A stretch of DNA of 26,384 bases from Escherichia coli (GCF_003334765.1 NZ_QOWT01000044.1), one strand, 5' to 3'; counted from the first letter of the stretch, positions 9,565 through 10,250 are shown. Numbers and translations: made by a program. The notes: a model not told the origin generated them from the letters alone.

Positions 9565-10140
9565 TCAACGCCTGATAAGCGGTTGAACTTTGTTATCAAT
9601 AGCTTCCCTCGCTCGGAAGATACGTGAACGCACCGTACCTACCGGACAATCCATGATAGCGGCTATCTCTTCATAGCTCAGGCCATCCAGCTCCCGCAAG
9701 GTTATTGCCATGCGTAAATCTTCCGGGAGGGACTCAATAGTTCGGAAAACTATCTGTCTCAGTTCTTCTGACAACATTAAGTTCTCAGGGTTCGAAATTT
9801 CTTTCAACGCGCCGCCACTTTCGAAGTTTTCAGCTTCAATGGCATCCACATCACTGGAAGGTGGACGACGCCCCTGAGCAACCAGGTAATTTTTCGCTGT
9901 ATTTACAGCAATCCGATACAGCCATGTATAAAAAGCGCTATCTCCCCGGAACGAATCCAGCGCACGATAGGCTTTAATAAAAGCTTCTTGTACCACATCG
10001 GGAACATCACCCGACGGCACATAGCGGGAAACCAGACTCGCCACTTTATGCTGATAGCGCACTACCAGTAAGTTAAAGGCTTTCTGATCTCCCTTCTGGA
10101 CCCGTTCAACCAGGACCTGGTCCGTTAACTGCTCGCTCAT
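9565..10140 (-). CDS. rpoE: RNA polymerase sigma-E (sigma-24)
   Basis: Track ORF trimmed to MSEQLTDQVLVERVQKGDQKAF... (191 aa), ECF sigma factor. Confidence 0.96.
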   Translation of the reverse strand: MSEQLTDQVLVERVQKGDQKAFNLLVVRYQHKVASLVSRYVPSGDVPDVVQEAFIKAYRALDSFRGDSAFYTWLYRIAVNTAKNYLVAQGRRPPSSDVDAIEAENFESGGALKEISNPENLMLSEELRQIVFRTIESLPEDLRMAITLRELDGLSYEEIAAIMDCPVGTVRSRIFRAREAIDNKVQPLIRR

Positions 10141-10196
10141 CCGAGGTAAAGTCTCCCCAAACCAAATTTCCACGCGCTATCGAAACGCCACTCCAT
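10137..10196 (-). CDS. rseD: Small ORF translationally coupled to rpoE (RseD-like, 19 aa)
   Basis: Minus-strand ATG at 10196 encodes MEWRFDSAWKFGLGRLYLG; its TGA overlaps the rpoE ATG as ATGA. Lies downstream of the predicted sigma-E promoter. No strong Shine-Dalgarno. Confidence 0.4.
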   Translation of the reverse strand: MEWRFDSAWKFGLGRLYLG

Positions 10197-10222
10197 TAGC
10201 TGCAATTTGAGCAAGCAAAGGG

Positions 10223-10250
10223 TTAGAGTGTCTCGTTTTTGTAAAGTTCC
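10223..10250 (-). promoter_or_regulatory. Sigma-E-dependent promoter of rpoE (autoregulated)
   Basis: Minus strand reads GGAACTT (10244-10250), 16-bp spacer, TCTAA (10223-10227), matching the sigma-E consensus about 80 bp upstream of the rpoE ATG. Confidence 0.7.

Follow-up and report, generated by a model that had tools for sequence, protein, structure and literature searches.

A question raised by the control region of rpoE is whether the stress-induced transcript, which is unable to encode the leader peptide RseD, is translated differently from the transcripts that arise at promoters further upstream. The envelope-stress factor sigma-E is essential in Escherichia coli and either too little or too much of it is harmful to the cell, which makes each layer of control acting on rpoE of interest. 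The region considered here belongs to a 26,384-nucleotide stretch of E. coli DNA (hereafter the window), for which an initial annotation had proposed a sigma-E promoter upstream of rpoE, the corresponding autoregulatory loop and, within the resulting leader, an open reading frame (ORF) of 19 codons ending in ATGA on the rpoE initiation codon, an arrangement suited to translational coupling and said to agree with the reported rseD leader ORF, the length and start being its own reading of the sequence.

The identity of the locus is straightforward. Over the 461 bases surrounding the site, the window agrees with E. coli K-12 MG1655 at every position (100% identity), and each of the complete E. 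coli genomes (5426/5426) carries this segment as a single copy. RefSeq gives the gene order in MG1655 as nadB (divergent), rseD, rpoE, rseA and rseB, and the operon is written rseD-rpoE-rseA-rseB-rseC in published work; the segment constitutes the control region at the promoter-proximal end of this operon. Both the promoter and the leader gene have already been published and annotated, and there is nothing new in either. The rpoE coding sequence occupies positions 9565..10140 of the minus strand (191 codons plus stop, according to RefSeq). A version of rpoE extended to a GTG at 10173 (9565-10173, minus; 202 aa, MEIWFGETLPR-MSEQ...) was discarded as an artefact, since the ORF list opens each frame at whichever start codon first follows a stop; rpoE truly starts with the ATG at 10140. 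Read along the minus strand, the region runs ...CGTTAC GGAACTT TACAAAAACGAGACAC TCTAA CCCTTT GCTTGCTCAAATTGCAGCTA ATG GAG TGG ... CTC GGA TGA GCG AGC... and ends in the ATGA overlap (10137..10140, minus), in which the rpoE start (10140..10138) lies on the rseD stop (10139..10137). This overlap arises because rpoE codon 2 is AGC, and ATGAGCGAG at the overlap is invariant in the 32 Enterobacterales that we compared, namely 31 loci gathered with RpoE as the query plus the window.

Upstream of rpoE, the -35 element GGAACTT (10244..10250, minus), which coincides with rseD codons 15-17, is followed 16 nt downstream by the -10 element TCTAA (10223..10227, minus; consensus TCAAA), and the sigma-E transcription start is placed at 10215..10216 (minus), inside rseD codon 26, leaving a leader of 75-76 nt. 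These elements make up the sigma-E-dependent rpoE promoter P6, formerly P2. The exact pattern GGAACTT-N16-TCTAA has one match in the 26.4-kb window (minus strand, 10250..10223) against 0.01 expected from shuffles, and a search for GGAACTT-N16-TCAAA with at most one mismatch returned the rpoE promoter as the sole site in the window. The sigma-E promoter model of Rhodius et al. (2006) comprises GGAACTT, TCAAA, a spacer of 15-19 nt with 16 preferred, a discriminator of 5/6 nt and a purine start; judged against it, the promoter scores 7/7 at the -35 element and 4/5 at the -10 element (TCTAA) with a spacer of 16 nt, while G10216, 6 nt past the -10 element, conforms to the discriminator and purine-start rule. 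Reviews of Klein et al. (2016) describe six rpoE promoters with starts at -381, -327 (shared by two), -218, -153 and -75, and equate P6 with the proximal autoregulated sigma-E promoter formerly called rpoEP2; the published -75 start would map to position 10215 of the window, give or take 1 nt. The promoter and the autoregulatory loop of the initial annotation are thereby borne out, and the reported start near 10215 lies upstream, rather than downstream, of the first base of the 19-codon ORF at 10196.

The same arrangement is widely shared. The motif GAACTT-N15-17-TCNAA recurs at about -109 from the rpoE ATG in 27 of the 31 Enterobacterales loci as well as in the window, the GAACT of the -35 element being invariant and its final T nearly so across all 32, and the promoter motif is also present in Salmonella and Klebsiella pneumoniae. 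That transcription from this promoter depends on sigma-E is stated in the literature, and the fact that the two elements are conserved in Enterobacterales at a constant spacing from rpoE would lend indirect support to it. A published paper has placed the operon promoters 'upstream of, or within' rseD; P6 spans rseD codons 15-24, with its transcript start in codon 26, and because it lies within rseD the sigma-E transcript lacks the rseD start and cannot encode RseD.

The boundaries of the leader gene, on the other hand, are not those that the initial annotation had given. As annotated by RefSeq in MG1655 ('rpoE leader peptide RseD', 156 nt), rseD extends over 10137..10292 (minus), with 51 sense codons and a stop codon shared in part with the rpoE ATG. 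Its 51-aa product scores 104.2 bits against the NCBIfam equivalog NF033697 (leader_RseD; cutoff 35), covering profile positions 1-45, and an rseD annotation is found at the match in every E. coli genome among the 50 matches listed, the region itself being present in 5426 of 5426 genomes. The 19-codon ORF (10137..10196, minus; MEWRFDSAWKFGLGRLYLG), whose ATG lies at 10196..10194 and whose TGA stop lies at 10139..10137, is identical to rseD codons 33-51 plus the stop; its 19-aa product falls below the 20-residue minimum for profile scoring and corresponds to the last 19 profile positions of NF033697. Since no stop interrupts this frame over 52 codons, in which two further upstream ATGs occur, at 10292 and 10259, a mechanical ORF call returns 51 codons at 10137..10292. 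The 19-codon ORF is thus not free-standing, and its length alone is not beyond chance. Its coordinates and its overlap with the rpoE start hold, but its length and start are not those of the reported rseD, for which RefSeq, NF033697 and the annotations of E. coli genomes all indicate 51 codons from 10292. This amounts to a useful correction: the leader gene is 51 codons long and contains the sigma-E promoter.

Variation within the species is uninformative, as none of the 5426 E. coli genomes falls below 99% identity over the 186 bases that cover rseD, and a protein search retrieved RseD-named homologues nearly all from Escherichia, Shigella and Citrobacter, together with one partial entry labelled Pseudomonas aeruginosa. 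The 51-codon ORF (ORF51, rseD) reportedly ends on the rpoE start codon, and it was reportedly on this 51-codon ORF that the coupling experiment was performed, the loss of coupling being said to have lowered rpoE translation by more than 50%; its discoverers are likewise said to have raised a possible in-trans role of RseD. Translation of rseD has been detected by PIRT-seq, in a paper that also cites a chromosomal lacZ translational reporter; the supplementary text of the PIRT-seq paper does not mention rseD.

As for the origin of the transcripts that do carry rseD, a perfect TATAAT hexamer (10301..10306, minus) precedes the reported P5 start (-153, about 10293) by 7-8 nt and would by its position belong to P5; it is conserved in Salmonella and Klebsiella. 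The reported P5 start falls only 1 nt before the rseD ATG (10292), which would leave rseD leaderless or nearly so on P5 transcripts, and a near-leaderless rseD would fit the absence of a Shine-Dalgarno (SD) sequence. A sigma-70 promoter and terminator scan of 10100..10560 found nothing, despite the TATAAT at 10306..10301, and hence gives no support to the upstream promoters. Salmonella enterica has a 54-codon version of the leader ORF (L083, 1340-1504) with its ATG inside a TATAATG box, so that this ATG would be absent from a P5-like transcript, and in Klebsiella pneumoniae (L084) the open frame has only 37 codons, with one ATG within the sigma-E promoter spacer. These differences indicate that the start of the leader ORF is evolutionarily fluid.

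If the sigma-E transcript cannot encode RseD, the 19-codon ORF might still be translated on it from rseD codon 33 (Met33, at 10196) and, as a short leader ORF in its own right, couple ribosomes to rpoE via the ATGA. Among the alternatives this one survives best, and we regard it as unlikely, albeit with an appreciable chance of being correct. It is the sole ATG-initiated ORF wholly within the sigma-E transcript, and no AUG precedes Met33 on the P6 transcript, whose 5' end is 19-20 nt away; both the frame and the ATGA are intact. Met33 has no SD (its anti-SD duplex is at or above 0 kcal/mol versus -8.5 kcal/mol for rpoE), which counts against it; however, none of the three in-frame rseD ATGs (10292, 10259 and 10196) has one, so that the missing SD does not by itself disqualify Met33, and the full rseD start is translated without an SD as well. 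In-frame ATG ORFs of 19-21 codons occur inside the sigma-E leader in 9 of the 32 Enterobacterales, representing about six separate lineages, as would fit a selected mini-ORF; outside the carriers of Met33, ORFs of this length ending at the ATGA are found in Enterobacter cloacae, Enterobacter asburiae, a Pantoea, Rahnella, Serratia and Photorhabdus. Against this stands the lack of any ATG in the sigma-E leaders of 14 of the 32, and the leader ATGs have no clear frame preference, their counts by frame (11, 7 and 9) having led us to reject the mini-ORF as evidence of selection. The ATG at Met33 is moreover kept only in Escherichia (E. coli, E. albertii), Citrobacter and Salmonella; in Enterobacter and further genera of the Enterobacteriaceae the codon reads TTA, GTA, AAA, TTC or CCC, and Klebsiella has no ATG at this position. 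A search of the literature returned no experimental report of initiation at Met33. We consider that the Met33 ORF would be at most a weak contributor on sigma-E transcripts.

We favour instead a coupling that originates in the upstream transcripts and operates through the 51-codon rseD, which would probably proceed by termination-reinitiation at the ATGA together with the unfolding of a structure that buries the rpoE start. According to our folding predictions, this structure would be an SD/AUG hairpin closed by a helix of 8-9 bp to a 5' box of the leader. The predicted hairpin (10139..10162, minus) pairs GUUUGGGG (10162..10155) with CCUCGGAU (10146..10139) and encloses half of the SD along with the A and U of the rpoE AUG. 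The sigma-E transcript opens with the 5' box GCUUGCUCA (10208..10216, minus), which is matched by the complementary UGAGCGAGC (10139..10131); the latter is the 3' arm of the long-range helix (10131..10139, minus) and runs from the second base of the rpoE start codon through codons 2-3 to the first base of codon 4. In the minimum-free-energy fold of the sigma-E leader, GCUUGCUC (10216..10209) pairs with GAGCGAGC (10138..10131) over 8-9 bp, and the two predicted helices together bury half of the SD and the whole rpoE start codon, the z-scores of the folds, -0.6 to -1.0, being not significant.

Comparison across species speaks for the conservation of both helices. The RNAalifold consensus keeps the long-range helix in 32/32 species, with 95.5% of its cells paired as against 43-50% when the partners are slid, and the SD/AUG hairpin has 93% of its cells paired in the same 32 species. 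All nine long-range pairs (9/9) are formed in 29 of the 32, and also in Salmonella and Klebsiella, with changes that are only wobble-compatible, and the 5' box is nearly invariant across Enterobacterales. In neither helix did any pair change on both sides among the 32 species; with wobble-compatible changes only and no double-sided ones, the structure is conserved but unproven. The rpoE codons 2-3 (AGC GAG), which form part of the 3' arm, are nucleotide-invariant and are among only 12 of the 151 comparable rpoE codons of this kind, and their invariance is not explained by the ATGA overlap alone. An Rfam scan of 9900..10600 with E-values up to 1 returned no family, and no earlier description of the 5'-box/start helix was found in the papers covered.

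Outside Enterobacterales, the pairing between 5' box and start is mixed. Colwellia and Alteromonadaceae carry GUUUGCU or GUUUGUU with AGCGAAC, a combination that looks compensatory, and also GAGCC with GGCUC, a pairing like that of Shewanella-type leaders; in Shewanella and relatives (six loci), an element UUCGAGCGACU at about -45 to -35 is complementary to AGUCGGCUCGAA just before the start (-8 to +1). Five Pasteurellaceae loci have a GCUUGCUG box at about -45 from rpoE, downstream of a sigma-E-like promoter, and an rpoE start, ATGGCTGAA, that is non-complementary to it, so that the box may have another or an additional role. In 33 of 82 loci the leader-to-start duplex was stronger than those of shuffled leaders (z below -2). 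A leader element that sequesters the rpoE start region may be a general theme in gammaproteobacteria.

The start region of rpoE is also the target of other regulators. [quoted passage not shown] The four GGA motifs on the minus strand differ in their conservation among the 32 Enterobacterales: the one at 10194-10192, in the AUGGAG at Met33, is kept in 7, that at 10171-10169 (GUGGAA) in 25, that of the SD (10156-10154) in 31 and that at 10142-10140 (CGGAUGA) in 29. On this conservation, the third published CsrA site is more likely the GUGGAA than the GGA at Met33. The literature on the polyamine modulon, in turn, describes for rpoE an SD distant from the AUG and a U-rich bulged stem between the two, with which the predicted hairpin at 10162..10139 agrees.

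Whether it is the RseD peptide or the nucleotides of the leader that are conserved can be judged from the substitutions. When E. coli is set against Salmonella, the final 45 codons in the rseD frame show 4/6/4 differences at codon positions 1/2/3, and their codon changes are 10 nonsynonymous versus 2 synonymous, as compared with 4/1/34 differences by codon position and 2 nonsynonymous versus 36 synonymous changes for rpoE in the same two genomes; among 13 Enterobacteriaceae, the variable columns of the rseD frame are distributed 5/9/9 by codon position. In these alignments the rseD frame appears without a protein-coding substitution pattern and the RseD peptide without a signature of purifying selection. 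Enterobacter sp. Bisph1 and a soil MAG (L010 and L011, upstream of 1501) even carry a one-base insertion that turns the peptide EWRFD into SGVSG with the nucleotides conserved. The conserved blocks of nucleotides are the -35 and -10 elements, TGCTTGCTCA at the transcript start, GTGGA, TTTGGGGAGA and ACCTCGGATGAGCGAGCAG. At the same time, the rseD frame upstream of rpoE is open over a median of 38 codons versus 18 and 14 in the other two frames, and an ATG ORF ending at the ATGA exists in 18 of the 32 Enterobacterales, with variable starts, and in none of the remaining 14. The conservation of nucleotide type, taken together with the long open frame, suggests that it is probably translation through the region, and not the peptide, that matters.

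The same data could be read in another way, namely that the upstream frame is only a by-product of conserved cis elements and that the SD hairpin, CsrA and polyamines govern rpoE translation on native transcripts, coupling being minor. The conservation at the nucleotide level and the 14 of 32 loci without an ATG ORF ending at the ATGA would be in keeping with it, as would the documented control of the rpoE start region by polyamines and CsrA, but the rseD frame is open over about twice as many codons as the other two, translation of rseD has been detected and the loss of coupling reportedly cut rpoE translation by more than half, which renders this reading quite improbable in our estimation. 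We hold it to be highly improbable that RseD is a functional small protein acting in trans in the envelope stress response, the overlap serving mainly for co-expression, since its own NCBIfam model, the identity of at least 99% of its 186-nt region in 5426 E. coli genomes and the suggestion reportedly made by its discoverers are set against a peptide without a signature of purifying selection, named homologues nearly confined to Escherichia, Shigella and Citrobacter, variable starts and lengths (40 to 54 codons) with frameshifts or early stops in other genera, and conserved positions that coincide with the promoter, the 5' box, the GGA motifs and the SD.

As a whole, the observations are very probably best explained by a P6 promoter inside the 51-codon rseD, by coupling that comes from upstream transcripts and by sigma-E transcripts devoid of RseD. 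In such a scheme, sigma-E holoenzyme would initiate at about 10215/6 from P6 and close the positive autoregulatory loop, as is indicated by sequence, conservation and literature alike. On the transcripts from P1-P5, rseD would be translated and termination at the ATGA would raise rpoE translation by coupling, as has reportedly been found, whereas the sequence of the RseD peptide itself would not be what is selected. CsrA would, in line with the literature, repress rpoE through the GGA sites at the SD and the start codon, and sigma-E transcripts would rely mainly on the distant SD of rpoE itself, modulated by CsrA and polyamines, with Met33 as a possible minor contributor.

It is tempting to take the question posed at the outset one step further and to propose that rpoE translation depends on the promoter used. 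The P6 mRNA, which starts with the 5' box, would then be intrinsically damped, or else reliant on the Met33 mini-ORF, on relief from CsrA or on polyamines, whereas the P1-P5 mRNAs would be opened by the translation of rseD. We put this forward tentatively and think it unlikely to hold; if true, promoter-dependent translation would constitute a translational brake on the positive feedback loop of sigma-E.

These results are best appreciated in the light of systems already known. The rseD (ORF51)-rpoE leader of E. coli (Yakhnin et al., 2017, J Bacteriol 199:e00484-17) is the same locus, with a sequence identical to K-12, the same frame and the same ATGA overlap, and it differs from the ORF of the initial annotation in having 51 codons from 10292, upstream of the sigma-E promoter, of which that ORF represents the last 19 from Met33. 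Likewise, the sigma-E promoter of rpoE is the rpoEP2 of the 1995 papers and the P6 of Klein et al. (2016), with no difference between them. The start regions of the polyamine modulon (oppA, rmf, cpxR and rpoE) combine a distant SD with a U-rich bulged stem that matches the hairpin at 10162..10139; that work used short RNA fragments, including a 25-mer, and seemingly did not address the leader ORF and the 5'-box helix. Related in architecture are the CsrA-controlled leaders of idlP-iraD and evgL-evgA in E. coli, where, as in rseD-rpoE, the stop codon of a small leading ORF overlaps the initiation codon of a stress regulator gene and CsrA sites are present in the leader; in both, the downstream gene is fully translated only if the leader ORF is translated. 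Unlike these two systems, rpoE has documented CsrA sites on its own SD and start codon, and the main promoter induced by stress is internal to its leader ORF, which leaves one class of rpoE transcripts without the start of that ORF.
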